A stretch of 64,000 bases of DNA from Escherichia coli (GCF_041886205.1 NZ_CP169029.1), one strand, 5' to 3'; shown: positions 6,193 to 64,000, counted from the stretch's first letter. The notes: generated by a model not told the origin, from the letters alone. Program-made: numbers and translations.

Positions 6193-6852
6193 TTAACCAA
6201 TAATATGAAGTGATGTCAGCGGAATATCGACACCCAACGCGCGCGAAAATAACCACTCTGGCTCGCCGAGATCGTTAAAAGATTCCTCACCATTTAACAG
6301 CAAATATTCGTAAGTATCTTCGGTCACTTGCCGCTGGTAGCCCATGGTAAAATTATGGACCTCCCATTTGGCATGGTTTTGATTTTCTACTTTTTCCAGC
6401 ATGTAGACGGGTTCGATATTTCCCGGTTCTTCGCTGTTAAAAAATCGCTGCCAGCGTTTTCCCTGCCAGTTTAAGGTCATTGCCCCCATCGCTTTAGCGT
6501 TGATCGCCTCGCGCCAGTGACTCTCTTTACTGATACCGTAGCTCTCTTCATAGACAAAGAGCTTGATATCATCAATGTCATCAATATTTTCGCCGCCGGT
6601 GGTATTGATTTGCAGAAACTCATCGCCTGAAGTGTAGTAGCGGAAAATCTGGCTACCGCCGCCCAGATCGATGCGACTGACAGCGGCTACCGTAAATTCC
6701 TCACCCGGCAGCGCAATCAGCAATTCATCTTCCAGCAAACGAAACGCTAACGTGTCAAGCGTAAAGCCACTATTGAGATGAAGTCCCAGCGGACCGCGAG
6801 CGATAGCAGGCTTATTATCCTTGCCAAACAGACGCTGGAAAAAACCAGACAT
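6193..6852 (-). CDS. yjfK: DUF2491 protein YjfK
   Basis: 219 aa ORF matching YjfK. Confidence 0.85.
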   Translation of the reverse strand: MSGFFQRLFGKDNKPAIARGPLGLHLNSGFTLDTLAFRLLEDELLIALPGEEFTVAAVSRIDLGGGSQIFRYYTSGDEFLQINTTGGENIDDIDDIKLFVYEESYGISKESHWREAINAKAMGAMTLNWQGKRWQRFFNSEEPGNIEPVYMLEKVENQNHAKWEVHNFTMGYQRQVTEDTYEYLLLNGEESFNDLGEPEWLFSRALGVDIPLTSLHIIG

Positions 6853-6902
6853 ATTTTATCCTTAAAATAGTTGCCAGCCTTGCAGTGAGGCTGGCAAAAA
6901 AA

Positions 6903-7601
6903 TTACTCGCCCTGTTGGCGTTGCAGTCTTGCTAATACATCCTGGGCGCTACTTTTATTGCTACCGCCAATTCCGGCTTCCGCCAGCTTTTCGTCAAGGT
7001 CGCGACCGTCTGCGACTTTCTCCAACTGTGCGGCAGCATCCAGGCGAGCCTGACGTTCGGCCTGACGCGTTTGCAGGCGTTTTAAGGATTCTGCCGCTGT
7101 CGAAACGCTGGAAGATGCGCCAACGGTAGAGGTTGTTACAGCCTGTTGTGCACGCTGCATGGCTTCAGTGGCTTTAACGACTTCCATTTGCTGCTCAAAC
7201 TGAGCGATACGCTGCGCTGTCGCTGTAACTGCTTTTTCCACGCCATCACGGGAGACTTCCAGATTCGACAACACTTGCTCTTCAGCGGTAATGAGATTCT
7301 CAAGGCGCGCGATTTCTTCAGCAACTTCGTTAATCAACGACGGATTAACGTTCTTGCTTAACGCTTCCAGCGCACGGGCTTCCAGACTGGCTTTGCGCTC
7401 ACGTAAATCTTTCAGCTTATCGTGACTTAATTTCACCCGCGCCAGCAGATCAACGCGAGATTTTCCGGCTTTATCGAGTTCAGCTTTAGCGTCACGAATA
7501 TGCTGTTCCAGCATGCGCACGCCCTGGGTTTCTTCAATGGATTCTTCCGCCTGGGAGATAAACGATTTCCCCAGCGTAAATAAACTTTTTAAAATTCCCA
7601 T
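6903..7601 (-). CDS. yjfJ: PspA/IM30-family protein YjfJ
   Basis: 232 aa coiled-coil-rich ORF matching YjfJ (PspA/Vipp1 family). Confidence 0.85.
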   Translation of the reverse strand: MGILKSLFTLGKSFISQAEESIEETQGVRMLEQHIRDAKAELDKAGKSRVDLLARVKLSHDKLKDLRERKASLEARALEALSKNVNPSLINEVAEEIARLENLITAEEQVLSNLEVSRDGVEKAVTATAQRIAQFEQQMEVVKATEAMQRAQQAVTTSTVGASSSVSTAAESLKRLQTRQAERQARLDAAAQLEKVADGRDLDEKLAEAGIGGSNKSSAQDVLARLQRQQGE

Positions 7602-7619
7602 AAATACCCGTCCTTGTAA

Positions 7620-9058: not shown

Positions 9059-11500
9059 TCACTCTGCCACTTTTTTCTTCGCCGCACGCTTCGCTTTGGT
9101 CGCTGCAGCTATTTTCTGCGTTTTCGCCGATGGCTTTTTCGCTTTTCTCGCGTCTTTCTTCGCCGCTTTCGGCTTCGTTTTTTTCTCACCGCGGAAGGCG
9201 CTGTCTGGCTCAAAGTTTACCTTTTTACCGACCTGACGACGCTTGCCGCCTTTTTTACCTGCATCGCCTTTTTTCGCTTTCTCGCGCGCCGTTTTACCGA
9301 CGTTGCGCGGTGCGCGTTCGCTGGAGATCAGGCTAAAGTCGATTTTGCGCTCGTCCATATTAACCGCTTCGACGCGAACTTCCACGCGATCGCCCAGGCG
9401 ATAAGTCTGGCCGCTGGATTCCCCCATCAGGCGTTGCCCCACCTGGTCAAAGCGATAGTAGTCATTGTCCAGCGAAGAGACATGGACCAGACCATCAATG
9501 AACAAGTCGTCCAGACGGACGAAGAAGCCAAAGCCAGTGACGCTGGAAATTACGCCTTTAAAGACGTTACCTACCTGGTCGAGCATGAAGTCACACTTCA
9601 GCCAGTCAGCCACATCGCGCGTTGCTTCGTCGGCACGACGTTCCGCCATCGAACAGTGCTGACCCAGTTGCAGCATCTCTTCCATCGAATAATGGTAGCC
9701 GCCGGTTTCAGTGGTGTTGCCCTGATGCCCCTGCTCTTTCGCCAGCAGATATTTAATGGCGCGGTGCAGCGTCAGGTCTGGATAACGACGAATCGGCGAA
9801 GTAAAGTGCGCATAGGACTGCAATGCCAGGCCAAAGTGACCACGGTTTTCTGGATCGTAAATCGCCTGTTTCATCGAGCGCAGCAGCATGGTTTGCAGCA
9901 TTTCTGCATCAGGACGATCGGCAACCGACTCCAGCAGCTCCGCGTAGTCACGCGGTTCCGGCTTGTTACCGCCCGGCAGTTCCAGCCCCAGCTCCGCCAG
10001 CACTGAACGGAAAGAGGTAATCGCTTCGGTGCTCGGCTTGTCGTGAATACGGAACAGTGCCGGTTCTTTCGCTTTCTCAACGAAACGCGCCGCCGAGATA
10101 TTCGCCAGAATCATGCACTCTTCAATTAATTTGTGCGCGTCGTTACGCTGAGTCTGTTCGATACGTTCAATACGGCGTTCAGCGTTGAAAATGAACTTCG
10201 CTTCTTCGCTCTCAAATGAGATCCCACCGCGTTCTTCACGGGCTTTATCCAGCACTTTATAGAGGTTATGCAACTCTTCGAGATGCTTAACCAGCGGGGC
10301 GTACTGCTCGCGCAGATCCTGATCGCCCTGCAGAATATGCCAGACTTTGGTGTAGGTCAGACGCGCGTGAGAGCTCATCACCGCTTCGTAGAATTTGTAG
10401 CCCGTCAGGCGGCCTTTCGACGAAACCGTCATCTCGCACACCATACACAGGCGGTCTACCTGCGGGTTGAGCGAACACAGGCCGTTAGAGAGCACTTCCG
10501 GCAGCATCGGGATAACCTGCGAAGGGAAGTACACCGACGTGCCACGGTTACGCGCTTCTCTGTCCAGCGGCGTTGACGGACGCACATAGTAGCTGACGTC
10601 GGCAATCGCGACCCATAAACGCCAGCCGCCGCCGCGTTTTTTCTCGCAGTAAACTGCATCGTCAAAGTCACGGGCGTCTTCGCCATCAATGGTGACCAGC
10701 GGTAAATAGCGCAGATCAACACGGCCCGCTTTTGCTTCTTCCGGCACTTCTTCTTTCAGCCCGGCAACCTGTTGCTCAACAGCCTGCGGCCAGATGTACG
10801 GAATTTCATGGGTACGCAGAGCGATATCAACCGCCATGCCGGTGCCCATATTGTCGCCCAGCACTTCGACGATTTTACCCACCGCTTTGGTGCGGCGAGT
10901 CGGACGCTGAGTCAGTTCGACTACGACCACAAAGCCCATCCGCGCGCCCATGATCTGATCGGGCGGGATTAAGATATCGAAGCTCAGACGGCTGTCGTCA
11001 GGAACCACAAAGCCGACGCCCGCTTCGGTAAAGTAGCGACCAACAATCTGGCTGGTTTTTGGCACCAGTACGCGGACAATACGCGCTTCACGACGACCTT
11101 TACGGTCAGCACCCAGCGGCTGAGCCAGCACCTGATCGCCATGAATGCAGGTTTTCATCTGCTCGCTGGAGAGATACAAATCATCTTTACGCCCTTCAAC
11201 CCGTAGAAAGCCGTAGCCATCACGGTGGCCAATAACGGTACCTTTCACCAGGTCGAGGCGTTCCGGCAGCGCATAGCACTGACGACGAGTGAAGACCAGT
11301 TGACCATCGCGCTCCATCGCGCGCAGGCGGCGACGCAGGCCTTCAAGCTGCTCTTCGCCTTCAATGTGCAGTTCTACCGCCAGCTCATCACGGCTGGCCG
11401 GTTTTTCACGTTTGGTTAAATGTTCGAGGATAAATTCCCGACTAGGGATGGGATTCGCGTATTTTTCAGCTTCGCGTTCCTGGAAAGGATCTTGTGACAT
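9059..11500 (-). CDS. rnr: ribonuclease R
   Basis: Track ORF 827 aa trimmed to [10 protein letters not shown] start (813 aa); lysine-rich C-terminal tail typical of RNase R. Confidence 0.9.
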
Positions 11501-11538
11501 CTCGGTTCCTCCGTTGTCATCTCTGATGAAGATTTTCG

Positions 11539-11964
11539 TCACTCCACCAGCAATAATTTATAAAGCGGTTGATTCTCTTCAACCAAATCGGCAAGCGTGT
11601 AGTTATCCAGTTCCGTAAGAAAACTTTGCACGGCCTTAGAAAGTGCCTGTTTCAACCTACAGGCAGGTGTAATGTGGCAAAACTCACTGCTGCAATTCAC
11701 CAGCGATAAGGGCTCCAGCTCGCGCACCACATCACCAATACGTATCGCACTCGCCGGTTTACCCAGGCGAATGCCGCCATTTTTTCCACGAACAGCAGTC
11801 ACGTAGCCGGCACGACTAAGTTGATTGATTATTTTGACCATATGATTACGGGAGACGCCGTAGACGTCAGTCACTTCAGAAATACTGGTCATCCGCCCTT
11901 CTGGCAATGACGCCATGTAGATCAGCGCACGTAATCCGTAATCAGTGAAACTCGTTAACTGCAC
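11539..11964 (-). CDS. nsrR: nitric-oxide-sensing Rrf2-family repressor NsrR
   Basis: 141 aa ORF matching NsrR. Confidence 0.9.
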
Positions 11965-12168
11965 ATCAACCTCAAAAGGGAAATCGGGAAAAAATACATT
12001 TATATTGATGATAAACCAGCCACAAGCTGTGTCGCTAATTTATTTCAGTTCGGGGAAGGAAAAAAGCGAGGATTTAACACTGTGTCGGATAGCGTAATGG
12101 CTTACCCGACACAGCAATGTATCACACTGTTCGCCCGGCAGGCAAAATATCTGCCAGGCGTACCAGAA

Positions 12169-13470
<1,302 letters not shown>

Positions 13471-32107: not shown

Positions 32108-32257
32108 TGCATGAAGCTGCCAAATGATGTCAACGTGGCTCATTTAGCAGCTTAACATCATCTTCAGTTATCACCGGCCCTGGAGAGTATCATCCATACG
32201 CATTACTTCCAGACAACTCATCGCCGGAGAGACGATGAGTTGCAGGATTTCATATGA

Positions 32258-33760
32258 TCAGTCGAGAGCTAACTCAGGTTTGTTCGCCATGCGACTGCAA
32301 TAGTTCTGGTAAATCGCCATCGCTAACAGCGAGAAGAAGACAGGGCCGCCAATCATCCACAATGTGCTGTCCCAGTCTCCGGCTTCAACCACAGGTTGAA
32401 TGATGGTGAAGACGTTCGCAAATGTCACCACCAGTACGACAACCACTGTTGCGATCATTGCCGACATACGCGTTTTGAAAATCACAAACGGTCTGTCGAG
32501 ATCCTGACGTGCTTTAAAGAATGGGAAAGCCAGCGCGAGGAACAGGTAAGGAAGCGTCATAGACACGTTCGCCATCAGCGTCAGTTTGTTAAAGAACGCC
32601 GATGCGGTGCCACCGCCAAACGAAACCAGCAGGATGAAGACAGTAACCAACCCGCACTGCATCCACATGGCGATAGAAGGCATACCCATCGTATTCAGGC
32701 GCGTCATCGGTTCCGGCCACAATGCTTTCGGCGTTCCCTGGATGATGGCTTTCAGCGGTGAATAGCAAAGCGTAAAGAACGCACCGGTATAAGCGAGGAA
32801 CATCGAAAGCCCGGTAATACGCGCAAACCATACGCCCAGCGACAATGACGCTTCTGGTGACAAATGCAGTGCGTTACCCAGCGTCACCCCGAGGCTCTTC
32901 ATCAGCACATAGGTAATATTGCCGAGGTTAACGGAACCATTACTTAATACCTGCTGCCAGTTTGTGCTGACGCCCCATAAAAATATTGCCAGCGAATAAC
33001 CGATTGAAATAACAATAGCGGCAAAAACAATACCTTTGGCAAAGTTCTTTTCTGGATTTTCCGTTTTATCGACCAGACCACCAACCGCTTCAATTCCGCC
33101 ATAGGCAAAAATGGCAAATACCACAAACGATAGCATTGCCAGACCGGACTGATAACCTGGGTTCGGTGATGCAAGGAAATTAATATCCTGCGCGAAATGC
33201 CCACCATTTAATAACAAAATAGTAATGCTTACTAACAGCAATACTAAGTTCAGACACATTACTGCAATACCGCCCACCGCAGTAATGCGGGCAATTTTAT
33301 TAATCCCCTTTGAAGCAACGACGGTGACCAGAATCATCCATGCCACTGCCAGCAGACCAACCACCTGCGTAGGCTCCAGTCCGGCAATACGCCAGTGCTG
33401 GGTCATGTCGCTACCATAGAGGAATGTTGAGAACGGTACCCAAACTTTCGCGGAGGTGCTCACCATCCAGATGATATAAGAGGAAAACCACATAAACGTA
33501 CCAATGAAGGCAAAACGTGGTCCGACACTATTATTCATCCAGGAATAGATACCACCTTCTTCTTTGCGATAAGCAGCTCCCATTTCAGCCATCATTAAGG
33601 CGAATGGAATAAAGAATAACAATGCAGAAAATATATAAAAGGGAATCGCACTATAACCCATTAAGTAATAAGCCGATGGGCTATTGGCAAATCCAAATAC
33701 GGAAGTAAAGATCATCAATATGAGTCCTATCAGACTCATCTTTTTTATCGTGTGAGGCAT
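32258..33760 (-). CDS. yjeM: APC-family amino acid/polyamine transporter YjeM
   Basis: Track ORF 514 aa trimmed to MPHTIKKMSL start (500 aa). Confidence 0.85.
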   Translation of the reverse strand: MPHTIKKMSLIGLILMIFTSVFGFANSPSAYYLMGYSAIPFYIFSALLFFIPFALMMAEMGAAYRKEEGGIYSWMNNSVGPRFAFIGTFMWFSSYIIWMVSTSAKVWVPFSTFLYGSDMTQHWRIAGLEPTQVVGLLAVAWMILVTVVASKGINKIARITAVGGIAVMCLNLVLLLVSITILLLNGGHFAQDINFLASPNPGYQSGLAMLSFVVFAIFAYGGIEAVGGLVDKTENPEKNFAKGIVFAAIVISIGYSLAIFLWGVSTNWQQVLSNGSVNLGNITYVLMKSLGVTLGNALHLSPEASLSLGVWFARITGLSMFLAYTGAFFTLCYSPLKAIIQGTPKALWPEPMTRLNTMGMPSIAMWMQCGLVTVFILLVSFGGGTASAFFNKLTLMANVSMTLPYLFLALAFPFFKARQDLDRPFVIFKTRMSAMIATVVVVLVVTFANVFTIIQPVVEAGDWDSTLWMIGGPVFFSLLAMAIYQNYCSRMANKPELALD

Positions 33761-40724: not shown

Positions 40725-40742
40725 ATCAGGCTCCGGAGAATT

Positions 40743-40787
40743 GGGGCCGTCCCCGGTGAAAAGACGCGTTTGCAGGTCGTCCTGCAA
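40743..40787 (-). ncRNA. guanidine-II (mini-ykkC) riboswitch in the gdx leader
   Basis: Two hairpins on the minus strand with ACGR tetraloops: uugcagg-ACGA-ccugcaa and gggg-ACGG-cccc, separated by a 15-nt linker, followed by GGAG Shine-Dalgarno and the gdx ATG. Confidence 0.75.
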
Positions 40788-40905
40788 AGCTGATGGTTGA
40801 ACGGATATTTTGCCAGGTGGCAGGGGAATTTCAACTATTACCTTAGTGACTATCGCAGAAAAAACAAACGGCACGACATAGCTGTCGTACCGTTATTGCT
40901 TATTG

Positions 40906-50821: not shown

Positions 50822-52123
50822 ATGCTAGTTGTAGAACTCATCATAGTTTTGCTGGCGATCTTCTTGGGCGCCAGATTGGGGGGAATAGGTATTGGTTTTG
50901 CAGGCGGATTGGGGGTGCTGGTTCTTGCCGCTATTGGCGTTAAACCCGGTAACATCCCGTTCGATGTCATTTCCATTATCATGGCGGTTATCGCCGCTAT
51001 TTCTGCCATGCAGGTTGCTGGCGGTCTGGACTATCTGGTTCATCAGACAGAAAAGCTGCTGCGCCGTAACCCGAAATACATCACGATCCTCGCACCTATC
51101 GTGACCTATTTCCTGACAATCTTTGCTGGTACTGGCAACATCTCTCTGGCGACACTGCCAGTTATCGCTGAAGTTGCGAAGGAACAAGGCGTTAAACCTT
51201 GCCGTCCGCTGTCTACTGCAGTGGTATCCGCGCAGATTGCGATCACCGCATCGCCAATCTCAGCGGCAGTGGTTTACATGTCTTCCGTGATGGAAGGTCA
51301 TGGCATCAGCTACCTCCATCTGCTCTCCGTGGTCATCCCGTCCACCCTGCTGGCGGTTCTGGTGATGTCCTTTCTGGTCACTATGCTGTTCAACTCCAAA
51401 CTCTCTGACGATCCGATTTATCGCAAGCGTCTGGAAGAGGGCTTGGTTGAACTGCGCGGTGAAAAGCAGATTGAAATCAAATCCGGTGCAAAAACGTCCG
51501 TTTGGCTGTTCCTGCTGGGCGTAGTTGGCGTGGTTATCTATGCAATCATCAACAGCCCAAGCATGGGTCTGGTTGAAAAACCGCTGATGAACACCACCAA
51601 CGCAATCCTGATCATCATGCTCAGCGTTGCAACTCTGACCACCGTTATCTGTAAAGTCGATACCGACAACATCCTCAACTCCAGCACCTTCAAAGCAGGT
51701 ATGAGCGCCTGTATTTGTATCCTGGGTGTTGCGTGGCTGGGCGATACTTTCGTTTCCAACAACATCGACTGGATCAAAGATACCGCTGGTGAAGTGATTC
51801 AGGGTCATCCGTGGCTGCTGGCCGTCATCTTCTTCTTTGCTTCTGCTCTGCTGTACTCTCAGGCTGCAACCGCAAAAGCACTGATGCCGATGGCTCTGGC
51901 ACTGAACGTTTCTCCGCTGACCGCTGTTGCTTCTTTCGCTGCGGTGTCTGGTCTGTTCATTCTGCCGACCTATCCGACGCTGGTTGCTGCGGTACAGATG
52001 GATGACACGGGTACTACCCGTATCGGTAAATTCGTCTTCAACCATCCGTTCTTCATCCCGGGTACTCTGGGTGTTGCCCTGGCCGTTTGCTTCGGCTTCG
52101 TGCTGGGTAGCTTCATGCTGTAA
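50822..52123 (+). CDS. dcuA: anaerobic C4-dicarboxylate transporter DcuA
   Basis: 433 aa polytopic membrane ORF matching DcuA. Confidence 0.95.
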   Translation: MLVVELIIVLLAIFLGARLGGIGIGFAGGLGVLVLAAIGVKPGNIPFDVISIIMAVIAAISAMQVAGGLDYLVHQTEKLLRRNPKYITILAPIVTYFLTIFAGTGNISLATLPVIAEVAKEQGVKPCRPLSTAVVSAQIAITASPISAAVVYMSSVMEGHGISYLHLLSVVIPSTLLAVLVMSFLVTMLFNSKLSDDPIYRKRLEEGLVELRGEKQIEIKSGAKTSVWLFLLGVVGVVIYAIINSPSMGLVEKPLMNTTNAILIIMLSVATLTTVICKVDTDNILNSSTFKAGMSACICILGVAWLGDTFVSNNIDWIKDTAGEVIQGHPWLLAVIFFFASALLYSQAATAKALMPMALALNVSPLTAVASFAAVSGLFILPTYPTLVAAVQMDDTGTTRIGKFVFNHPFFIPGTLGVALAVCFGFVLGSFML

Positions 52124-52238
52124 TGACCAATCGCGGGGCGTTCACGCCCCGCTTTCTTTCCCGCCGACTAACATCCTTCCCCCGTCCGTTGTATAGTGAC
52201 CTCTCTCTTGCGGTTCCATCTGTTCTTGCGAGGTGTTT

Positions 52239-52577
52239 ATGCTTGATGAAAAAAGTTCGAATACCGCGTCTGTCGTGGTGCTATGTACGGCACCAGATGA
52301 AGCGACAGCCCAGGATTTAGCCGCCAAAGTGCTGGCGGAAAAACTGGCGGCCTGCGCGACCTTGATCCCCGGCGCTACCTCTCTCTATTACTGGGAAGGT
52401 AAGCTGGAGCAAGAATACGAAGTGCAGATGATTTTAAAAACTACCGTATCTCACCAGCAGGCACTGCTGGAATGCCTGAAGTCTCATCATCCATATCAAA
52501 CCCCGGAACTTCTGGTTTTACCTGTTACACACGGAGACACAGATTACCTCTCATGGCTCAACGCATCTTTACGCTGA
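52239..52577 (+). CDS. cutA: divalent-cation tolerance protein CutA
   Basis: Track ORF trimmed to [15 protein letters not shown] start (112 aa). Confidence 0.9.
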
Positions 52578-54250
52578 TCCTGCTACTTTGCAGCACTTCC
52601 GTTTTTGCCGGATTATTCGACGCGCCGGGACGTTCACATTTTGTCCCCGCGGATCAAGCCTTTGCTTTTGATTTTCAGCAAAACCAACATGACCTGAATC
52701 TGACCTGGCAGATCAAAGACGGTTACTACCTCTACCGTAAACAGATCCGCATTACGCCGGAACACGCGAAAATTGCCGACGTGCAGCTGCCGCAAGGCGT
52801 CTGGCATGAAGATGAGTTTTACGGCAAAAGCGAGATTTACCGCGATCGGCTGACGCTTCCCGTAACCATCAACCAGGCGAGTGCGGGAGCGACGTTAACT
52901 GTCACCTACCAGGGCTGTGCTGATGCCGGTTTCTGTTATCCGCCAGAAACCAAAACCGTTCCGTTAAGCGAAGTGGTAGCCAACAACGCAGCGTCACAGC
53001 CTGTGTCTGTTCCGCAGCAAGAGCAGCACACCGCGCAATTGCCCTTTTCCGCGCTCTGGGCGTTGTTGATCGGTATTGGTATCGCCTTTACGCCATGCGT
53101 GCTGCCAATGTACCCACTGATTTCTGGCATCGTGCTGGGTGGTAAACAGCGGCTCTCCACTGCCAGAGCATTGTTGCTGACCTTTATTTATGTGCAGGGG
53201 ATGGCACTGACTTACACGGCGCTGGGTCTGGTAGTTGCCGCCGCAGGGTTACAGTTCCAGGCGGCGCTACAGCACCCATACGTGCTCATTGGCCTCGCCA
53301 TCGTCTTTACCTTGCTGGCGATGTCAATGTTTGGCTTGTTTACTCTACAACTCCCCTCTTCGCTGCAAACACGTCTCACGTTGATGAGCAATCGCCAACA
53401 GGGCGGCTCACCTGGCGGTGTGTTTGTTATGGGGGCGATTGCCGGACTGATCTGTTCACCATGCACCACCGCACCGCTTAGCGCGATTCTGCTGTATATC
53501 GCCCAAAGCGGGAACATGTGGCTGGGCGGCGGCACGCTTTATCTCTATGCGTTGGGCATGGGCCTGCCGCTGATGCTAATTACCGTCTTTGGTAACCGCT
53601 TGCTGCCGAAAAGCGGCCCGTGGATGGAACAAGTCAAAACCGCGTTTGGTTTTGTGATCCTCGCACTGCCGGTCTTCCTGCTGGAGCGAGTGATTGGTGA
53701 TGTATGGGGATTACGCTTGTGGTCGGCGCTGGGTGTCGCATTCTTTGGCTGGGCCTTTATCACCAGCCTACAGGCTAAACGCGGCTGGATGCGTATTGTG
53801 CAAATTATTCTGCTGGCAGCGGCATTGGTTAGCGTGCGCCCACTTCAGGATTGGGCATTTGGTGCGACGCATACCGCGCAAACTCAGACGCATCTCAACT
53901 TTACACAAATCAAAACGGTAGATGAGTTAAATCAGGCGCTCGTTGAAGCCAAAGGCAAACCGGTGATGTTAGATCTTTATGCCGACTGGTGCGTCGCCTG
54001 TAAAGAGTTTGAGAAATACACCTTCAGCGACCCGCAGGTGCAAAAAGCGTTAGCAGACACGGTCTTACTTCAGGCCAACGTCACTGCTAACGACGCACAA
54101 GATGTGGCGCTGTTAAAGCATCTTAATGTCCTTGGCCTACCGACAATTCTCTTTTTTGACGGACAAGGCCAGGAGCATCCACAAGCACGCGTCACGGGCT
54201 TTATGGATGCTGAAACCTTCAGCGCACATTTGCGCGATCGCCAACCGTGA
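52553..54250 (+). CDS. dsbD: thiol:disulfide interchange protein DsbD
   Basis: Track ORF trimmed to [14 protein letters not shown] start (565 aa); C-terminal thioredoxin CVAC motif; overlaps cutA 3' end. Confidence 0.9.
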
Positions 54251-54286
54251 ACGACACTTGCAGTGGGAAAGACGGAGGAAAATAGC

Positions 54287-54862
54287 GTGCAACGTGAAGA
54301 TGTACTGGGAGAAGCCCTGAAATTATTAGAATTACAAGGGATTGCCAACACCACGCTGGAGATGGTTGCTGAACGTGTGGATTATCCACTGGACGAGCTA
54401 CGCCGCTTCTGGCCAGACAAAGAGGCAATCCTCTACGATGCGCTGCGTTATCTTAGCCAACAGATAGATGTCTGGCGTCGTCAGCTGATGCTGGACGAAA
54501 CGCAAACCGCCGAACAAAAGCTGCTGGCACGTTATCAGGCGTTATCGGAGTGCGTTAAAAACAACCGCTATCCGGGCTGTCTATTTATCGCTGCCTGTAC
54601 GTTTTATCCCGATCCTGGCCACCCTATTCATCAACTGGCCGATCAGCAAAAAAGCGCGGCCTACGATTTCACCCACGAACTGTTAACCACACTGGAAGTT
54701 GACGATCCGGCGATGGTAGCAAAGCAGATGGAACTGGTGCTGGAAGGCTGTTTAAGCCGAATGCTGGTGAATCGTAGCCAGGCGGATGTCGACACTGCAC
54801 ATCGGCTGGCGGAAGATATCCTGCGCTTCGCCCGCTGCCGCCAGGGTGGTGCATTGACCTGA
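54287..54862 (+). CDS. yjdC: TetR-family transcriptional regulator YjdC
   Basis: Track ORF trimmed to GTG start giving [11 protein letters not shown] (191 aa). Confidence 0.8.
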
Positions 54863-54968
54863 CAGAAACACAGAAAAGAAGCGATTTGCCGCAATCTTAA
54901 GCAGTTGAATCGCTTTTACTGAAATTAGGTTGACGAGATGTGCAGATTACGGTTTAATGCGCCCCGTT

Positions 54969-55044
54969 GCCCGGATAGCTCAGTCGGTAGAGCAGGGGAT
55001 TGAAAATCCCCGTGTCCTTGGTTCGATTCCGAGTCCGGGCACCA
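54969..55044 (+). tRNA. pheU: tRNA-Phe (GAA)
   Basis: 76 nt exact match to E. coli tRNA-Phe (gcccggatagctcagtcggtagagcaggggattgaaaatcccc...cacca); located after yjdC as pheU is in E. coli. Confidence 0.95.
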
Positions 55045-55241
55045 AATTCATATCAACGGACCTCCACGGAGGTCCGTTTTTCGTTTCAGAACGCCACAAT
55101 TTAAGCGTTCTACCTACAAATCAATTCTACCGAACTCAACCAGATTCCCCCCACATCAACCCCATTGTGTGGGTATAATTGCGGGCATACCCCAGTTCGA
55201 CAGAATTTGTACCCTCTTTAACGCATTCAGAAGGCTATACT

Positions 55242-56504
55242 ATGGCACTGACTGACGCAAAAATCCGGGCTGCAAAGCCCACTGACAAGGCTTATAAACT
55301 CACTGACGGGGCTGGCATGTTCCTACTGGTTCATCCTAATGGTTCCCGTTACTGGCGTCTCCGTTATCGTATTCTGGGTAAGGAGAAGACTCTGGCACTT
55401 GGTGTGTATCCAGAAGTTTCTCTCTCCGAAGCTCGTACAAAACGGGATGAGGCCCGAAAACTGATTTCGGAGGGGATTGACCCTTGCGAACTGAAAAGAG
55501 CTAAAAAAGTAGTCCCTGATTTACAACTCTCTTTTGAACATATTGCACGACGCTGGCATGCCAGTAATAAACAATGGGCACAATCACACAGCGATAAAGT
55601 ACTCAAAAGCCTCGAGACACACGTTTTCCCCTTTATCGGCAACCGGGATATCACAACACTCAGTACCCCGGACCTGCTTATCCCTGTTCGTGCTGCAGAA
55701 GCTAAACAAATTTATGAAATCGCCAGTCGTCTGCAGCAAAGAATATCTGCTGTAATGCGTTATGCCGTACAGTCTGGCATCATCAGATATAACCCGGCTC
55801 TGGATATGGCTGGTGCATTGACCACGGTAAAACGCCAGCATCGCCCTGCACTGGATCTTTCACGCCTGCCTGAACTTCTGTCGCGTATTGACGGTTATAA
55901 AGGCCAGCCTGTCACCCGACTGGCAGTTATGCTGAATTTACTGGTTTTTATTCGTTCCAGTGAACTCAGATACGCCCGCTGGTCTGAAATTGATATTGAC
56001 AATGCCATGTGGACTATTCCAGCCGAACGCGAACCTCTGCCTGGCGTAAAATTCTCACACCGGGGCTCCAAGATGCGAACACCACATCTTGTGCCACTCA
56101 GCAAACAGGCTGTAGCCATACTGGCAGAACTACAGACATGGGCTGGTGAAAATGGTCTGATCTTTACGGGAGCACATGACCCGCGTAAACCAATCAGTGA
56201 AAATACTGTAAATAAAGCCCTGAGGGTGATGGGGTATGACACAACCCAGGATGTCTGTGGCCATGGATTCCGGGCGATGGCGTGCAGTGCATTGATTGAA
56301 TCAGGTTTGTGGTCCCGCGATGCTGTGGAACGTCAGATGAGCCATCAGGAGCGTAATGGTGTACGTGCTGCGTATATCCATAAAGCAGAACATCTGGAAG
56401 AACGGCGACTGATGTTGCAATGGTGGGCCGATTTTCTGGATGCGAACCGGGAGAAGGGTATCAGTCCGTTTGAATATGCAAAAATTAACAATCCATTAAA
56501 ATAG
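55242..56504 (+). CDS. P4-type tyrosine integrase (tRNA-associated genomic-island integrase)
   Basis: 420 aa ORF starting MALTDAKIRAAKP, 198 nt downstream of tRNA-Phe; C-terminal catalytic region with HGFRAMACS (H-x-x-R) and nucleophile Tyr in RAAYIHK; appears full length. Confidence 0.85.
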   Translation: MALTDAKIRAAKPTDKAYKLTDGAGMFLLVHPNGSRYWRLRYRILGKEKTLALGVYPEVSLSEARTKRDEARKLISEGIDPCELKRAKKVVPDLQLSFEHIARRWHASNKQWAQSHSDKVLKSLETHVFPFIGNRDITTLSTPDLLIPVRAAEAKQIYEIASRLQQRISAVMRYAVQSGIIRYNPALDMAGALTTVKRQHRPALDLSRLPELLSRIDGYKGQPVTRLAVMLNLLVFIRSSELRYARWSEIDIDNAMWTIPAEREPLPGVKFSHRGSKMRTPHLVPLSKQAVAILAELQTWAGENGLIFTGAHDPRKPISENTVNKALRVMGYDTTQDVCGHGFRAMACSALIESGLWSRDAVERQMSHQERNGVRAAYIHKAEHLEERRLMLQWWADFLDANREKGISPFEYAKINNPLK

Positions 56505-56590
56505 TAAGCAGTCCGGGCAATCAGCCCGGACTGCTGGTGATGCTGCCAACTTACTGATTTAGTGTATGATGGTGTTTTTGAGGTGCTCCA

Positions 56591-56866
56591 GTGGCTTCTG
56601 TTTCTATCAGCTGTCCCTCCTGTTCAGCTACTGACGGGGTGGTACGTAACGGCAAAAGCACCGCCGGACATCAGCGCTATCTCTGCTCTCACTGCCGTAA
56701 AACATGGCAACTGCAGTTCACTTACACCGCTTCTCAACCCGGTACGCACCAGAAAATCATTGATATGGCCATGAATGGCGTTGGATGCCGGGCAACTGCC
56801 CGCATTATGGGCGTTGGCCTCAACACGATTTTACGTCACTTAAAAAACTCAGGCCGCAGTCGGTAA
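56591..56866 (+). CDS. insA: IS1 protein InsA
   Basis: 91 aa [43 protein letters not shown]. Confidence 0.95.
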
Positions 56867-57288
56867 CCTCGCGCATACAGCCGGGCAGTGACGTCATCGT
56901 CTGCGCGGAAATGGACGAACAGTGGGGCTATGTCGGGGCTAAATCGCGCCAGCGCTGGCTGTTTTACGCGTATGACAGGCTCCGGAAGACGGTTGTTGCG
57001 CACGTATTCGGTGAACGCACTATGGCGACGCTGGAGCGTCTTCTGGGCCTGCTGTCGGCCTTTGAGGTCGTGGTATGGATGACGGATGGCTGGCCGCTTT
57101 ATGAATCACGCCTGAAGGGAGAACTGCACGTTATCAGCAAGCGATATACGCAGCGCATTGAGCGGCATAACCTGAATCTGAGGCAGCATCTGGCAAGGCT
57201 GGGCAGGAAGTCACTGTCGTTCTCAAAATCGGTGGAGCTGCATGACAAAGTTATCGGGCATTATCTGAACATAAAACACTATCAATAA
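56785..57288 (+). CDS. insB: IS1 InsB frame (expressed as InsAB' transposase by -1 frameshift)
   Basis: 167 aa ORF overlapping insA in the -1 frame, ending ...[19 protein letters not shown]. Confidence 0.9.
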
Positions 57289-57354
57289 GTTGGAGTCATT
57301 ACCCGCTTTGCTTTAGCGAGAACTGGTCTTTTATTCGCACTCAGGAGTACATGT

Positions 57355-58116
57355 ATGAGGATTTGCAGCGACCAACCTTGTATTGTTTTATTGACTGAAA
57401 AAGATGTCTGGATAAGGGTGAATGGGAAAGAACCTATTAGCCTTAAAGCTAACCATATGGCGTTATTAAATTGTGAAAATAATATTATCGACGTCTCCTC
57501 TCTTAACAACACTTTGGTTGCTCATATTAGTCACGACATCATCAAAGATTACCTCCGGTTTCTGAATAAAGATCTCTCGCAAATACCAGTATGGCAACGT
57601 AGCGCTACGCCCATACTCACCCTGCCATGCCTGACGCCAGACGTCTTTCGCGTTGCCGCGCAACACAGCATGATGCCCGCAGAAACTGAGTCAGAAAAGG
57701 AACGAACACGCGCATTATTATTCACGGTGCTATCCCGTTTTCTCGACAGTAAAAAATTCGTTTCATTAATGATGTATATGTTACGTAATTGTGTAAGTGA
57801 CAGCGTTTATCAAATTATTGAAAGCGATATTCACAAAGACTGGAATCTTAGTATGGTAGCCAGTTGTTTATGTCTTAGCCCAAGTCTGTTAAAGAAAAAG
57901 TTGAAAAGCGAAAACACCAGTTATAGCCAAATAATCACCACCTGCCGCATGCGTTATGCCGTAAATGAATTAATGATGGACGGTAAAAATATCTCTCAGG
58001 TATCACAGTCCTGCGGCTACAACAGTACGTCGTACTTTATTTCTGTCTTTAAAGACTTCTACGGTATGACGCCGCTGCATTATGTTAGTCAGCACAGAGA
58101 ACGCACTGTCGCCTGA
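57355..58116 (+). CDS. adiY: AraC-family regulator AdiY
   Basis: 253 aa ORF MRICSDQPCIVLLTEKDVWIRVNGKEP matching AdiY; begins only 51 nt after the IS1 end. Confidence 0.9.
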   Translation: MRICSDQPCIVLLTEKDVWIRVNGKEPISLKANHMALLNCENNIIDVSSLNNTLVAHISHDIIKDYLRFLNKDLSQIPVWQRSATPILTLPCLTPDVFRVAAQHSMMPAETESEKERTRALLFTVLSRFLDSKKFVSLMMYMLRNCVSDSVYQIIESDIHKDWNLSMVASCLCLSPSLLKKKLKSENTSYSQIITTCRMRYAVNELMMDGKNISQVSQSCGYNSTSYFISVFKDFYGMTPLHYVSQHRERTVA

Positions 58117-58252
58117 TTTTTAACCTTAACGAAGAGCTATATTAATAACGGCATCAGCGATAACCCGGTCGATAATAATTCAACTATCGAATGCAGGCGT
58201 ATGATATGACGTAATTTATTGTCACGAAGCTCGCCTTCGCAGGAGTTTAATT

Positions 58253-59590
58253 ATGTCTTCGGATGCTGATGCTCACAAAGTGGGCTTAATCCCCGTCACC
58301 CTGATGGTGTCGGGGAATATTATGGGGTCAGGTGTTTTTCTGTTACCTGCAAACCTGGCCTCTACTGGCGGGATTGCCATTTATGGATGGTTGGTGACGA
58401 TTATCGGTGCACTGGGGCTCTCGATGGTATACGCCAAAATGTCGTTCCTCGACCCAAGTCCTGGTGGTTCTTACGCTTACGCCCGCCGCTGCTTTGGCCC
58501 GTTTCTCGGTTATCAAACCAACGTCCTCTACTGGCTGGCCTGCTGGATCGGCAATATCGCCATGGTGGTCATTGGCGTAGGATATTTAAGTTACTTCTTC
58601 CCGATTCTGAAAGATCCATTGGTATTAACCATCACCTGCGTCGTGGTGCTGTGGATCTTCGTCCTGCTGAACATTGTCGGTCCGAAAATGATCACCCGTG
58701 TGCAGGCAGTTGCCACCGTGCTGGCGCTGATCCCCATCGTCGGGATTGCCGTATTTGGCTGGTTCTGGTTCCGTGGTGAAACCTATATGGCGGCATGGAA
58801 CGTCAGCGGCCTGGGCACCTTCGGTGCAATTCAAAGTACCCTTAACGTTACGCTGTGGTCGTTCATCGGTGTGGAAAGTGCCTCCGTTGCCGCAGGTGTG
58901 GTGAAAAACCCGAAACGCAATGTCCCTATCGCCACCATTGGTGGGGTATTGATTGCCGCCGTTTGCTATGTACTTTCTACCACCGCGATTATGGGGATGA
59001 TCCCTAATGCCGCACTGCGCGTTTCTGCTTCGCCATTCGGTGATGCCGCACGGATGGCGTTGGGTGACACCGCCGGGGCCATTGTTTCCTTCTGCGCAGC
59101 TGCGGGTTGCTTAGGTTCACTGGGCGGCTGGACGTTGCTGGCGGGTCAAACGGCGAAAGCCGCTGCCGATGACGGACTGTTCCCACCGATTTTTGCCCGT
59201 GTAAATAAAGCGGGTACGCCAGTGGCGGGGCTGATTATCGTCGGTATTTTGATGACCATCTTCCAGCTCAGCAGCATTTCACCAAACGCGACCAAAGAGT
59301 TCGGTCTGGTTTCTTCCGTCTCGGTCATCTTTACACTGGTGCCATATCTTTACACCTGTGCGGCGTTACTGCTGCTCGGACACGGTCACTTTGGTAAAGC
59401 ACGCCCGGCATATCTGGCAGTTACTACCATTGCCTTCCTCTACTGCATCTGGGCCGTGGTGGGGTCCGGAGCGAAAGAGGTTATGTGGTCATTTGTCACC
59501 CTGATGGTCATCACCGCCATGTATGCGCTGAATTACAACCGGCTACATAAAAACCCGTATCCCTTAGATGCACCAATAAGCAAAGATTAA
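58253..59590 (+). CDS. adiC: arginine:agmatine antiporter AdiC
   Basis: 445 aa [39 protein letters not shown] matching AdiC. Confidence 0.95.
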
Positions 59591-59693
59591 TTCCCCTTAA
59601 TCCAGCAAACATAAAAGCCAACCTTAAGAACTTAAGGTTGGCTTAATTTTGCTTTGCGAGCATATGCGCACTTTGTTCGATGGAAACACCGTG

Positions 59694-61337
59694 ATGTTGA
59701 AGCGCCTACTAAAAAGACCCTCTTTGAATTTACTCGCCTGGCTATTGTTGGCCGCTTTTTATATCTCTATCTGCCTGAATATTGCCTTTTTTAAACAGGT
59801 GTTGCAGGCGCTGCCGCTGGATTCGCTGCATAACGTACTGGTTTTCTTGTCGATGCCGGTCGTCGCTTTCAGCGTGATTAATATTGTCCTGACACTAAGC
59901 TCTTTCTTATGGCTTAATCGACCACTGGCCTGCCTGTTTATTCTGGTTGGCGCGGCTGCACAATATTTCATAATGACTTACGGCATCGTCATCGACCGCT
60001 CGATGATTGCCAATATTATTGATACCACTCCGGCAGAAAGTTATGCGCTGATGACACCGCAAATGTTATTAACGCTGGGATTCAGCGGCGTGCTTGCTGC
60101 GCTGATTGCCTGCTGGATAAAAATCAAACCTGCCACCTCGCGTCTGCGCAGTGTTCTTTTCCGTGGAGCCAATATTCTGGTTTCTGTACTACTGATTTTG
60201 CTGGTCGCCGCACTGTTTTATAAAGACTACGCCTCGTTGTTCCGCAATAACAAAGAGCTGGTGAAATCCTTAAGCCCCTCTAACAGCATTGTTGCCAGCT
60301 GGTCATGGTACTCCCATCAGCGACTGGCAAATCTGCCGCTGGTGCGAATTGGTGAAGACGCGCACCGCAACCCGTTAATGCAGAACGAAAAACGTAAAAA
60401 TTTGACCATCCTGATTGTCGGCGAAACCTCGCGGGCGGAGAACTTCTCCCTCAACGGCTACCCGCGTGAAACTAACCCGCGGCTGGCGAAAGATAACGTG
60501 GTCTATTTCCCTAATACCGCATCTTGCGGCACGGCAACGGCAGTTTCAGTACCGTGCATGTTCTCGGATATGCCGCGTGAGCACTACAAAGAAGAGCTGG
60601 CACAGCACCAGGAAGGCGTGCTGGATATCATTCAGCGAGCGGGCATCAACGTGCTGTGGAATGACAACGATGGCGGCTGTAAAGGTGCCTGCGACCGCGT
60701 GCCTCACCAGAACGTCACCGCGCTGAATCTACCTGATCAGTGCATCAACGGCGAATGCTATGACGAAGTGCTGTTCCACGGGCTTGAAGAGTACATCAAT
60801 AACCTGCAAGGTGATGGCGTGATTGTCTTACACACCATCGGCAGCCACGGTCCGACCTATTACAACCGCTATCCGCCTCAGTTCAGGAAATTTACCCCAA
60901 CCTGCGACACCAATGAGATCCAGACCTGTACCAAAGAGCAACTGGTGAACACTTACGACAACACGCTGGTTTACGTCGACTATATTGTTGATAAAGCGAT
61001 TAATCTGCTTAAAGAACATCAGGATAAATTTACCACCAGCCTGGTTTATCTTTCTGACCACGGTGAATCGTTAGGTGAAAATGGCATCTATCTGCACGGT
61101 CTGCCTTATGCCATCGCCCCGGATAGCCAAAAACAGGTGCCAATGCTGCTGTGGCTGTCGGAGGATTATCAAAAACGGTATCAGGTTGACCAGAACTGCC
61201 TGCAAAAACAGGCGCAAACGCAACACTATTCACAAGACAATTTATTCTCCACGCTATTGGGATTAACTGGCGTTGAGACGAAGTATTACCAGGCTGCGGA
61301 TGATATTCTGCAAACTTGCAGGAGAGTGAGTAAATGA
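59694..61337 (+). CDS. eptA: lipid A phosphoethanolamine transferase EptA (PmrC)
   Basis: Track ORF trimmed to [22 protein letters not shown] start (547 aa). Confidence 0.9.
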
Positions 61338-62002
61338 AAATTCTGATTGTTGAAGACGATACGCTGTTATTGCAGGGACTGATTCTGGCGGCGCAAACCG
61401 AAGGCTACGCGTGCGATGGCGTGACAACCGCGCGGATGGCGGAACAAAGCCTTGAGGCCGGTCATTACAGCCTGGTGGTACTGGATTTAGGGTTACCCGA
61501 CGAAGATGGACTGCATTTTCTCGCCCGTATCCGGCAGAAAAAATACACCCTGCCGGTACTGATCCTCACCGCTCGCGATACGCTGACCGACAAAATCGCC
61601 GGGCTGGATGTCGGTGCCGATGACTATCTGGTGAAGCCCTTTGCGCTGGAAGAGTTACACGCCCGTATCCGAGCCCTGCTACGACGCCATAATAATCAGG
61701 GCGAAAGTGAGCTGATTGTTGGCAATCTGACGCTGAATATGGGTCGCCGTCAGGTATGGATGGGCGGTGAAGAGTTGATTCTGACGCCCAAAGAATATGC
61801 TCTGCTGTCACGGTTAATGCTCAAAGCAGGCAGTCCGGTGCATCGGGAAATTCTCTACAACGACATCTATAACTGGGACAATGAACCCTCGACCAACACC
61901 CTGGAAGTGCATATCCACAATCTGCGCGACAAAGTGGGCAAAGCCCGTATCCGCACCGTGCGCGGCTTTGGCTATATGCTGGTCGCGAATGAGGAAAACT
62001 AA
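61334..62002 (+). CDS. basR: two-component response regulator BasR (PmrA)
   Basis: 222 aa [19 protein letters not shown] with receiver-domain Asp; start overlaps eptA stop (ATGA). Confidence 0.95.
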
Positions 62003-62011
62003 TTGAATCTG

Positions 62012-63103
62012 ATGCGTTTTCTGCGCCGACCAATATCGCTGCGCCAACGGCTGATATTGACCATCGGGGCCATTTTGTTGGTGTTTGAGCTGATCAGCGT
62101 CTTCTGGCTATGGCATGAAAGTACCGAGCAGATTCAGCTGTTTGAGCAGGCGCTACGCGACAATCGCAACAACGATCGCCACATCATGCGTGAGATCCGC
62201 GAGGCGGTCGCCAGCCTGATTGTCCCCGGCGTCTTTATGGTCAGCCTGACGCTATTTATCTGCTATCAGGCGGTACGCCGCATCACCCGCCCGCTGGCGG
62301 AGCTGCAAAAAGAGCTGGAAGCGCGCACCGCCGACAACTTAACGCCCATTGCCATTCACAGCGCCACCCTCGAAATCGAAGCGGTGGTTTCGGCGTTAAA
62401 CGATCTGGTCAGTCGCCTGACCAGCACGCTGGATAACGAAAGGTTGTTTACCGCTGACGTCGCGCACGAACTGCGAACGCCACTGGCGGGGGTGCGTTTG
62501 CATCTGGAACTGCTGGCGAAAACGCATCACATTGATGTAGCACCGTTAGTGGCACGGCTTGATCAGATGATGGAGAGCGTCTCCCAGCTGCTGCAACTGG
62601 CGCGTGCCGGACAGTCATTTTCTTCCGGTAATTATCAACATGTAAAACTGCTGGAAGATGTCATTCTCCCCTCGTATGACGAACTCAGTACCATGCTCGA
62701 CCAGCGACAGCAAACCCTGCTATTGCCAGAGAGCGCCGCCGACATCACCGTTCAGGGTGATGCAACCCTGCTGCGGATGTTATTGCGAAACCTGGTAGAA
62801 AACGCCCATCGTTACAGCCCGCAAGGCAGCAACATTATGATTAAGCTGCAAGAAGATGACGGAGCGGTCATGGCAGTTGAAGATGAAGGACCAGGTATTG
62901 ATGAGAGTAAATGCGGGGAGTTGAGTAAAGCGTTTGTACGTATGGACAGCCGTTATGGCGGGATTGGTCTGGGGTTAAGTATTGTCAGCCGCATTACACA
63001 GTTGCATCACGGGCAGTTTTTCCTGCAAAACCGGCAAGAGACTTCCGGCACGCGGGCCTGGGTACGGCTGAAGAAAGATCAGTACGTGGCAAACCAGATA
63101 TAA
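62012..63103 (+). CDS. basS: two-component sensor kinase BasS (PmrB)
   Basis: Track ORF (TTG at 62003) trimmed to ATG giving MRFLRRPISLRQ (363 aa); H-box ADVAHELRTPL. Confidence 0.9.
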   Translation: MRFLRRPISLRQRLILTIGAILLVFELISVFWLWHESTEQIQLFEQALRDNRNNDRHIMREIREAVASLIVPGVFMVSLTLFICYQAVRRITRPLAELQKELEARTADNLTPIAIHSATLEIEAVVSALNDLVSRLTSTLDNERLFTADVAHELRTPLAGVRLHLELLAKTHHIDVAPLVARLDQMMESVSQLLQLARAGQSFSSGNYQHVKLLEDVILPSYDELSTMLDQRQQTLLLPESAADITVQGDATLLRMLLRNLVENAHRYSPQGSNIMIKLQEDDGAVMAVEDEGPGIDESKCGELSKAFVRMDSRYGGIGLGLSIVSRITQLHHGQFFLQNRQETSGTRAWVRLKKDQYVANQI

Positions 63104-63279
63104 AGAAAGCTGCTGACCACCAGCACGCTGAACACGGTAGTTAAACTTTCATAAACACGGTTTTTCATTGCACTCTCCTCCGTTAACCTGGAGGAGAGTA
63201 TGCGCGTCAGAGATTAAGTGAACCTTAAGAGTTCAATTGGCCTGATAAGACAGCGTCACATCAGGCCATCCGTTTCAGC

Positions 63280-64000
63280 TTATTCATCAATTCGCGGATG
63301 TTGCTGCACCAGGCGGGTACGTTTCGCCTGCAAATCGGCAATCTCGTGGTCAATATTATCGATTTTCTGCTCGATATTATCGTAATGCTCGACGAGAATT
63401 TCCTTCGCTTCCTGTATATCTGACGCCGCCGGTGTCGCACCTTTCAACGGACGATTTGCCGTCTCTTTCATGGTTACGCCGGTGATTAAACCAATCACCG
63501 CCACTACCATCAGGTAATAGGCAGGCATCATCAGATTCTGCGAGCTTTCGACCAGCCAGGCCGCCAGTGTTGGCGTCAGACCGGCAACCAGCACCGAAAT
63601 ATTAAATGCCGCCGCCAGCGCGCTGTAACGGATATGCGTCGGGAACATCGCTGGCAAGGTAGAAGCCATAACGCCCGTAAAGCAGTTAAGGATCACCGCC
63701 AGCATCAGTAACCCGGCAAAAATCAGGCCGATGACGTTACTGTTAATCAGAATAAACGCCGGGATCGCCAACACAAACAGGGCAACACTACCAAGTAGCA
63801 CAAACGGACGACGGCCAAAACGGTCACTCAGCAAGCCCATCACCGGCTGGACAAACAGCATACCGATCATAATGGCGATAATAATCAGCACCCCGTGGTC
63901 TTCGGAGTAATGCAAGTTATGCGACAAATAACTCGGCATATAGGTCAGCAACATGTAGTAAGTCACGTTGGTGGCAATTACCAGACCAATACATGTCAAC
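63280..64000 (-). CDS. proP: osmoprotectant/proton symporter ProP, 3' portion (5' end outside window)
   Basis: ORF open to window edge; C-terminal coiled-coil tail ...DIQEAKEILVEHYDNIEQKIDNIDHEIADLQAKRTRLVQQHPRIDE characteristic of ProP. Confidence 0.85.
   Translation of the reverse strand, partial: LTCIGLVIATNVTYYMLLTYMPSYLSHNLHYSEDHGVLIIIAIMIGMLFVQPVMGLLSDRFGRRPFVLLGSVALFVLAIPAFILINSNVIGLIFAGLLMLAVILNCFTGVMASTLPAMFPTHIRYSALAAAFNISVLVAGLTPTLAAWLVESSQNLMMPAYYLMVVAVIGLITGVTMKETANRPLKGATPAASDIQEAKEILVEHYDNIEQKIDNIDHEIADLQAKRTRLVQQHPRIDE

Follow-up and report, generated by a model that had tools for sequence, protein, structure and literature searches.

Arginine-dependent acid resistance, conferred by the AR3 or Adi system of Escherichia coli, needs both AdiA, which is an arginine decarboxylase, and AdiC, which exchanges arginine for agmatine as an antiporter. 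The gene order adiA-adiY-adiC, on which the original prediction for this locus relied, was confirmed by comparison with K-12. In the absence of AdiY, neither the adiA nor the adiC promoter is active, and a 300-bp fragment from upstream of adiY is only weakly active (PMC12826058, a 2025 study). In Shigella, loss of the cad locus is the typical pathoadaptive mutation (PMC4229854). E. coli is known to undergo deletions of 11-66 kb adjacent to IS1 in which the IS fixes one end (PMC10569738), and IS-mediated deletions leave behind an element without direct repeats (PMC9330008). The window (the whole stretch of E. coli DNA that was analysed, 64,000 nucleotides in length) contains an adi locus. The features of the region are as follows.

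54969-55044, + strand: tRNA-Phe gene pheU (identified by ARAGORN and Rfam), the integration site
55045-55241, + strand: left end of the island at pheU, with mismatches to strain wlxctx60
55242-56504, + strand: P4-like tyrosine integrase gene, intact, 420 aa (Pfam Arm-DNA-bind_3, Phage_int_M and Phage_integrase)
56507-56535, + strand: hairpin stem of the integrase terminator, abutting IS1, its + strand T-tract lost
56536-57303, + strand: IS1, 768 bp, sole copy within the window, both terminal inverted repeats present
56591-56866: insA, within IS1, joined to insB' by an A6C frameshift motif
56785-57288: insB', within IS1
57304-57354, + strand: residual adiY leader, 51 nt, with the Shine-Dalgarno sequence AGGAG, identical to K-12; site of the right junction and of the IS1 hot spot
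57355-58116, + strand: adiY, AraC-family activator, 253 aa, 100% nucleotide identity to K-12
58117-58252, + strand: adiY-adiC spacer, 136 nt, the AdiY-dependent adiC promoter region (PMC12826058), 100% identical to K-12
58253-59590, + strand: adiC, arginine:agmatine antiporter, 445 aa, 100% nucleotide identity to K-12
59694-61337, + strand: eptA, followed by basR and basS; right-hand backbone, undisturbed and collinear with K-12

An IS1-associated deletion, recent and specific to this strain, very probably produced this arrangement in what is otherwise an ordinary E. coli chromosome. The blocks on either side align with K-12 at 99.38% identity (window 51595-55158) and 99.76% identity (window 57304-64000), and both are collinear and co-oriented with it. 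In K-12, these two blocks are separated by 24,456 bp that the window lacks. The missing interval contains 18 genes and one pseudogene, running from adiA through cadCBA: the genes absent are adiA, melR, melAB, yjdF, fumB, dcuB, dcuRS, yjdIJ, ghoST, lysU, dtpC and cadABC, and the integrase remnant yjdQ also lies within it. In its place, the window has the P4-like integrase at pheU and IS1. When the K-12 interval was compared with the window by sensitive blastn, the matches were the 51-nt leader, weak integrase-to-integrase similarity and a few stretches of 38-125 nt (approximately 77-87% identity). An IS thus sits exactly at the junction of collinear, co-oriented segments that are separated in relatives, and because the flanks keep their orientation the event is a deletion and not an inversion. 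The single IS1 evidently marks the site of this chromosomal deletion of approximately 23-24 kb. The locus has lost cadCBA, some 14 further genes, and adiA along with its terminator and 3'-UTR. As cadCBA lie inside the same missing interval as adiA, the predicted loss of the cad operon is upheld and can be assigned to the same event.

The element at the junction has the length, terminal inverted repeats and insA/insB' organization (with the A6C frameshift site) of IS1. Its ends read GGTGATGCTGCCAACTTACTGAT and, reverse-complemented, GGTAATGACTCCAACTTATTGAT. The InsA and InsB' frames are intact and match InsA domains and DDE_Tnp_IS1 in Pfam and transpos_IS1 in NCBIfam. No target-site duplication (8-9 bp) is found at this IS1, the left flank being CGGACTGCT and the right flank CGCTTTGCT. 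The missing duplication fits the product of an IS-mediated deletion or recombination, not a simple insertion. Rfam returned no match within the interval under study.

The left deletion junction (56535/56536) falls directly after the terminator stem of the integrase gene. Intact islands continue past this stem with TTTAACTGATTATTTTT (the island sequence after the stem is also given as TTTAACTG), and the T-tract is part of what the window has lost. The integrase is the sole surviving island gene in the window, where neither cargo nor a second pheU 3' end (attR) was found; a 25-mer search allowing up to 3 mismatches gave 1 match only. A tRNA-associated island would be expected to have an integrase next to the tRNA 3' end and cargo bounded by a direct repeat of that end; of these, the integrase alone is present here. 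In other assemblies, exactly the same integrase protein heads full islands of >10 kb at pheU or at another tRNA-Phe site. In an exact look-up, every other occurrence of this integrase either headed an intact island or lay at the end of a contig, in backbones 98.9-99.5% identical to the window, and none had the order int-IS1-adiY. The islands that it heads encode a 1171-aa helicase/PLD-domain protein, a sulfatase and an outer-membrane beta-barrel protein (loci L005-L012).

On the right side of the deletion, adiY and adiC are intact, as had been predicted: these genes and the spacer between them match K-12 MG1655 at every nucleotide. With the NCBIfam equivalog NF007929 (cut-off 574), AdiC reaches a score of 892 bits. 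The adiC gene and its promoter region are untouched. Upstream of adiY, 51 of the 324 nt of native spacer are retained (from 57304 to the ATG at 57355, the length given by the original prediction) and everything beyond position -51 is gone. The predicted absence of adiA between pheU and adiY also holds, as only the 420-aa integrase gene and IS1 are found there, and a tblastn search of the whole 64-kb window with K-12 AdiA gave a best E-value of 0.85, i.e. no adiA. Within the window, AdiC is thus encoded and AdiA is not. The antiporter and its activator are accordingly orphaned at this locus, the neighbouring adiA and the native upstream region of adiY both being missing. Along the 6.7-kb right flank, divergence from K-12 is patchy, with adiY and adiC 100% identical; 16 nt differ, and 8 of the 16 are in basR (61334-62002), including the substitution S29G. 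EptA carries E547K relative to K-12 (61335-61337 region).

Among complete E. coli genomes, adiA is present at a coverage of at least 80% in 5407 of 5426 (99.65%) and adiY-adiC in 5411 of 5426, so the pair without adiA is rare. Because adiA is a single-copy gene at its native site in these 5407 genomes, a second copy elsewhere is unlikely, and adiA has likely been lost genome-wide. Without AdiA there would be no acid-induced supply of agmatine for the antiporter. AdiC should therefore be unable to support arginine-dependent acid resistance, and lysine-dependent resistance is predicted to be lost as well. The intactness of adiY and adiC carries no information on selection or retained function, since they show zero divergence from close relatives and there has been no time for decay.

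The relatives of the strain indicate how recent the deletion is. Over the 22 kb leftward of pheU, the complete genomes that match best are wlxctx60, 6EVA, VE-T9, LHM10-1 and CP52E (99.9-100.0% identity), and the closest complete genomes are those of faecal and environmental E. coli. Strains wlxctx60 (from bear faeces) and 6EVA (from human faeces) are each about 99.97% identical to the window over this 22 kb, which for wlxctx60 corresponds to approximately 7 mismatches as estimated from the bit score. All 6 left-side mismatches to wlxctx60 are located at 55054-55148, just past pheU, and the preceding backbone is identical. Over the 6,697 nt of the right flank, wlxctx60 is identical and 6EVA differs at 1 nt. 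6EVA keeps the complete ancestral interval (about 22.8 kb), with adiA at its native locus. As this near-identical strain is intact, the deletion in the window is recent and strain-specific. In the clone most similar to the window, melB is missing and melA adjoins yjdF directly (L019, L020 and L021), and the interval deleted from the window would thus have been approximately 22.8 kb, as against 24.5 kb in K-12.

Two further relatives vary at pheU. CP52E has a different, 21-kb island there. In wlxctx60 (L019 36600-37700), an IS1-family element lies beside a pheU integrase remnant, and cadC, cadB, cadA and the 5' part of dtpC are deleted. A shared IS1 was considered and rejected, as the wlxctx60 element is an unrelated family member with no significant nucleotide match to that of the window. 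Strain wlxctx60 represents an independent second loss of cad in the same clone. The pheU-cad region is unstable in this clone.

This second loss bears on the possibility that the deletion is a pathoadaptive 'black hole' of the Shigella and enteroinvasive E. coli type, selected for removal of cadA, with adiA a bystander. Such an origin would agree with the Shigella precedent cited above, with a deletion that begins at pheU beside cadC and with the repeated loss of cadCBA in wlxctx60. It is nevertheless unlikely. Outside the pheU-to-basS stretch, 46 K-12 genes were tested and every one has its full length, and the 64 kb contain a single IS, such that neither the IS expansion nor the pseudogenes of an invasive pathovar, nor any other Shigella-like decay, is found within the window; a virulence marker is likewise absent from it. 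The nearest relatives are the bear and human faecal strains. An S. flexneri origin was rejected, because in S. flexneri M90T adiA, adiY and adiC (yjdE) are contiguous and expressed, and the deletion does not correspond to the usual Shigella arrangement. Elsewhere, the window follows the K-12 gene order at approximately 98.8% identity. Of K-12, yjeN-yjeO alone are absent there, with about 190 nt instead at 32108-32294 between mscM and yjeM, which looks like ordinary accessory-gene variation. Two expected K-12 features were detected with Rfam: a guanidine-II riboswitch upstream of gdx (40742-40788, - strand) and the sRNA STnc630 beside basS/pmrR (63072-63237, - strand).

The proposed history of the locus under an IS1-associated deletion is as follows. 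The ancestor would have resembled 6EVA, with the order pheU, cadCBA, dtpC, lysU, ghoST, yjdIJ, dcuSR, dcuB, fumB, yjdF, mel, adiA, adiY, adiC. It would then have gained an island with a P4-like integrase at pheU. IS1 most likely entered a hot spot that has been hit repeatedly and lies 51 nt upstream of adiY, and the DNA from the left end of IS1 to a point just past the integrase terminator stem would subsequently have been lost. Abortive intramolecular transposition could have caused this loss, as could recombination with another IS1 in direct orientation; there is precedent for both with IS1. The first step could have been an insertion at adiY or one near int, or two IS1 copies could have recombined.

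The best sigma-70-like site in the native adiY spacer is TTTATG-17-TACAAT, with its -10 ending at -73, and is located upstream of the breakpoint. On a rough scoring matrix, used beside a separate consensus scan, this candidate scores 8.4 (90th percentile of the background: 7.9), and the IS1 end plus leader score 5.3, which equals the background median. The native adiY promoter has thus probably been removed, as far as such a matrix can indicate, from in front of a coding sequence identical to that of K-12. The original prediction had adiY transcribed from an IS1-derived or fortuitous promoter, which these results do not support. IS1 ends carry an outward -35 able to form hybrid promoters (PMC8764528); that of the right end here is TTGGAG, and the hexamers standing at 16-18 nt from it are TTTAGC, TTAGCG and TAGCGA. 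As none is a usable -10, an IS1 hybrid promoter was rejected, and the consensus scan found no promoter at the IS1/leader junction. The genes int, insA/insB', adiY and adiC are all co-directional and no + strand terminator was detected between the IS1 promoter and adiY, so adiY could presumably be transcribed only by read-through from the int or IS1 promoter.

The right junction of the window IS1 is a site that has been hit in other strains. Three complete E. coli genomes (KFu022, TOE3 and STIN_95) have an IS1 at the same nucleotide and in the same orientation. In KFu022 and TOE3, the two of these strains in which the flanking duplication was read, the element is a simple insertion with the 9-bp duplication CGCTTTGCT on both sides. 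All three strains keep adiA. The KFu022 and TOE3 copies differ from that of the window by 22 and 38 nt (22-41 nt when they are also compared with each other), and the STIN_95 copy is 93.5% identical to it (6.5% different). As these copies have diverged from one another, the hits at the adiY site are independent. Other strains have IS1 elsewhere in the adiA-adiY and adiY-adiC spacers. The positions of the shared junction and of the other copies are as follows.

Window 57295-57312: hot-spot junction
L001 5996-6013 and 6764-6781: hot-spot junction
L003, same positions: hot-spot junction
L022 (STIN_95), about 10944-10961: hot-spot junction
L022 (STIN_95) 11538-12305: other adi-locus IS1 copy
L002 (Ecol_AZ147) 6836-7603: other adi-locus IS1 copy
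L016 and L017 4002-4769: other adi-locus IS1 copies
L015 (GN04171) 10317-11084: other adi-locus IS1 copy

The sites other than the hot spot are within adiY, in the adiY-adiC spacer, at the 3' end of adiA and downstream of adiC; in the last case, the insertion comes with loss of eptA through part of alsA. All of the fetched adi-locus copies are co-directional with adiY, and as the search joins same-strand pieces only and so favours this orientation itself, no reading of an orientation bias was drawn. The position 51 nt upstream of adiY, with its insertions in KFu022, TOE3 and STIN_95, is thus apparently a hot spot for IS1. The spacer that carries it has 36% G+C and IS1 prefers AT-rich targets (PMC5009759), which would explain its recurrence at adiY.

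A functional reading of the same site is that the insertion rewired adiY, freeing it from its H-NS-bound, AT-rich upstream region to be expressed constitutively, with the orphan pair kept for another role (action of AdiY on gad and glt genes, or arginine import by AdiC). The adiY gene is repressed by H-NS, and the gadA, gadBC and gltBD promoters are affected or bound by AdiY (PMC2984483). The co-directional genes, the lack of a + strand terminator, the capacity of IS1 ends for hybrid promoters and the independent hits in three other strains could all be accommodated. Such rewiring is nonetheless quite improbable: the -35 of IS1 has no usable -10 at the right distance, the hot-spot IS1 of STIN_95 is accompanied by a second IS1 inside adiY that destroys this gene, the AT-rich preference of IS1 accounts for the recurrence and, with zero divergence from relatives, retention of the pair is no evidence of selection. 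It is very doubtful that the -51 site could act as a recurrent, selectable IS1 'switch' that releases adiY from control by H-NS and anaerobiosis and gives rise to deletions by which acid-resistance capacity is tuned, with an orphan AdiY-AdiC kept for control of the glutamate system or for AdiA-independent transport by AdiC.

The join itself could in principle be an assembly artefact, in which an IS1 following int and another preceding adiY, still separated by the 23-kb interval, have been collapsed as a repeat. Being a multicopy repeat of 768 bp, IS1 breaks assemblies made from short reads or joins them wrongly. The int-IS1-adiY arrangement is found in 0 of the 5426 complete E. coli genomes, and exact searches with the left (37-mer) and right (38-mer) junctions gave 0 matches in GTDB species representatives and JGI metagenomes. 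Against this, IS1-adjacent deletions of such a size are common (PMC10569738). The join is also base-perfect at both IS1 ends, its right end is a known true insertion site and a close relative has an independent IS-associated deletion beside pheU, which together make an artefact highly improbable. Relocation of the interval, as an IS1-flanked composite segment or on a plasmid, with adiA and cadCBA still in the genome, is scarcely credible, for although IS1 can form composite transposons and the E. coli collection has adiA matches on plasmids (3 places) and twice in some genomes (2 places per genome being the highest), the median is 1 place per carrying genome, 6EVA has adiA at its native locus and the collinear, same-orientation flanks rule out a simple inversion.

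The IS1-associated deletion is an event of a well-known kind and an ordinary strain-specific loss of genes; the recurrent IS1 hot spot upstream of adiY is its sole mildly interesting feature. If the rest of the genome agrees, two inducible decarboxylase systems of acid resistance (arginine and lysine) have been lost in one event, which also removed the anaerobic C4-dicarboxylate genes dcuSR, dcuB and fumB. The strain would then be a rare natural adiA knockout, for which 6EVA and similar near-isogenic, intact relatives could serve as partners. IS1 has repeatedly targeted the AT-rich neighbourhood of adiY, and even in bear faecal E. coli (wlxctx60) the pheU-cad region is prone to deletion. Loss of cad alone is therefore no reliable mark of an invasive lineage.

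The cad 'black holes' known from Shigella and from enteroinvasive E. coli resemble this locus in that cadCBA beside pheU are gone, an IS is involved and a lysine-decarboxylase-negative phenotype is predicted. Unlike them, the window has an undecayed background with no sign within it of an invasive lifestyle, its relatives are faecal E. coli from bear and human, and its deletion runs through adiA, which is kept and expressed in S. flexneri M90T. With the K-12 adi system, the window shares nucleotide-identical adiY, adiC and adiC promoter spacer and the downstream synteny of eptA and basRS. It differs in lacking adiA together with the adiA promoter, 3'-UTR and terminator, and in the 51 of 324 nt left upstream of adiY, and the locus as encoded in the window cannot consume protons. 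In KFu022, TOE3 and STIN_95, the junction of IS1 with CGCTTTGCT and the orientation of IS1 are identical to those of the window. All three of these strains retain adiA and have different IS1 copies, however, and KFu022 and TOE3 carry the 9-bp duplication on both sides, whereas the window IS1 has none. The nfsB deletions of 11-66 kb (PMC10569738) and the classical gal deletions likewise have one end at an IS1 terminus, extend over tens of kb and leave an IS1 without target duplication between collinear flanks. The window deletion differs from these in its locus, in having a natural IS1 hot spot as its fixed end and in having its other end inside a tRNA-associated island, just past the integrase.
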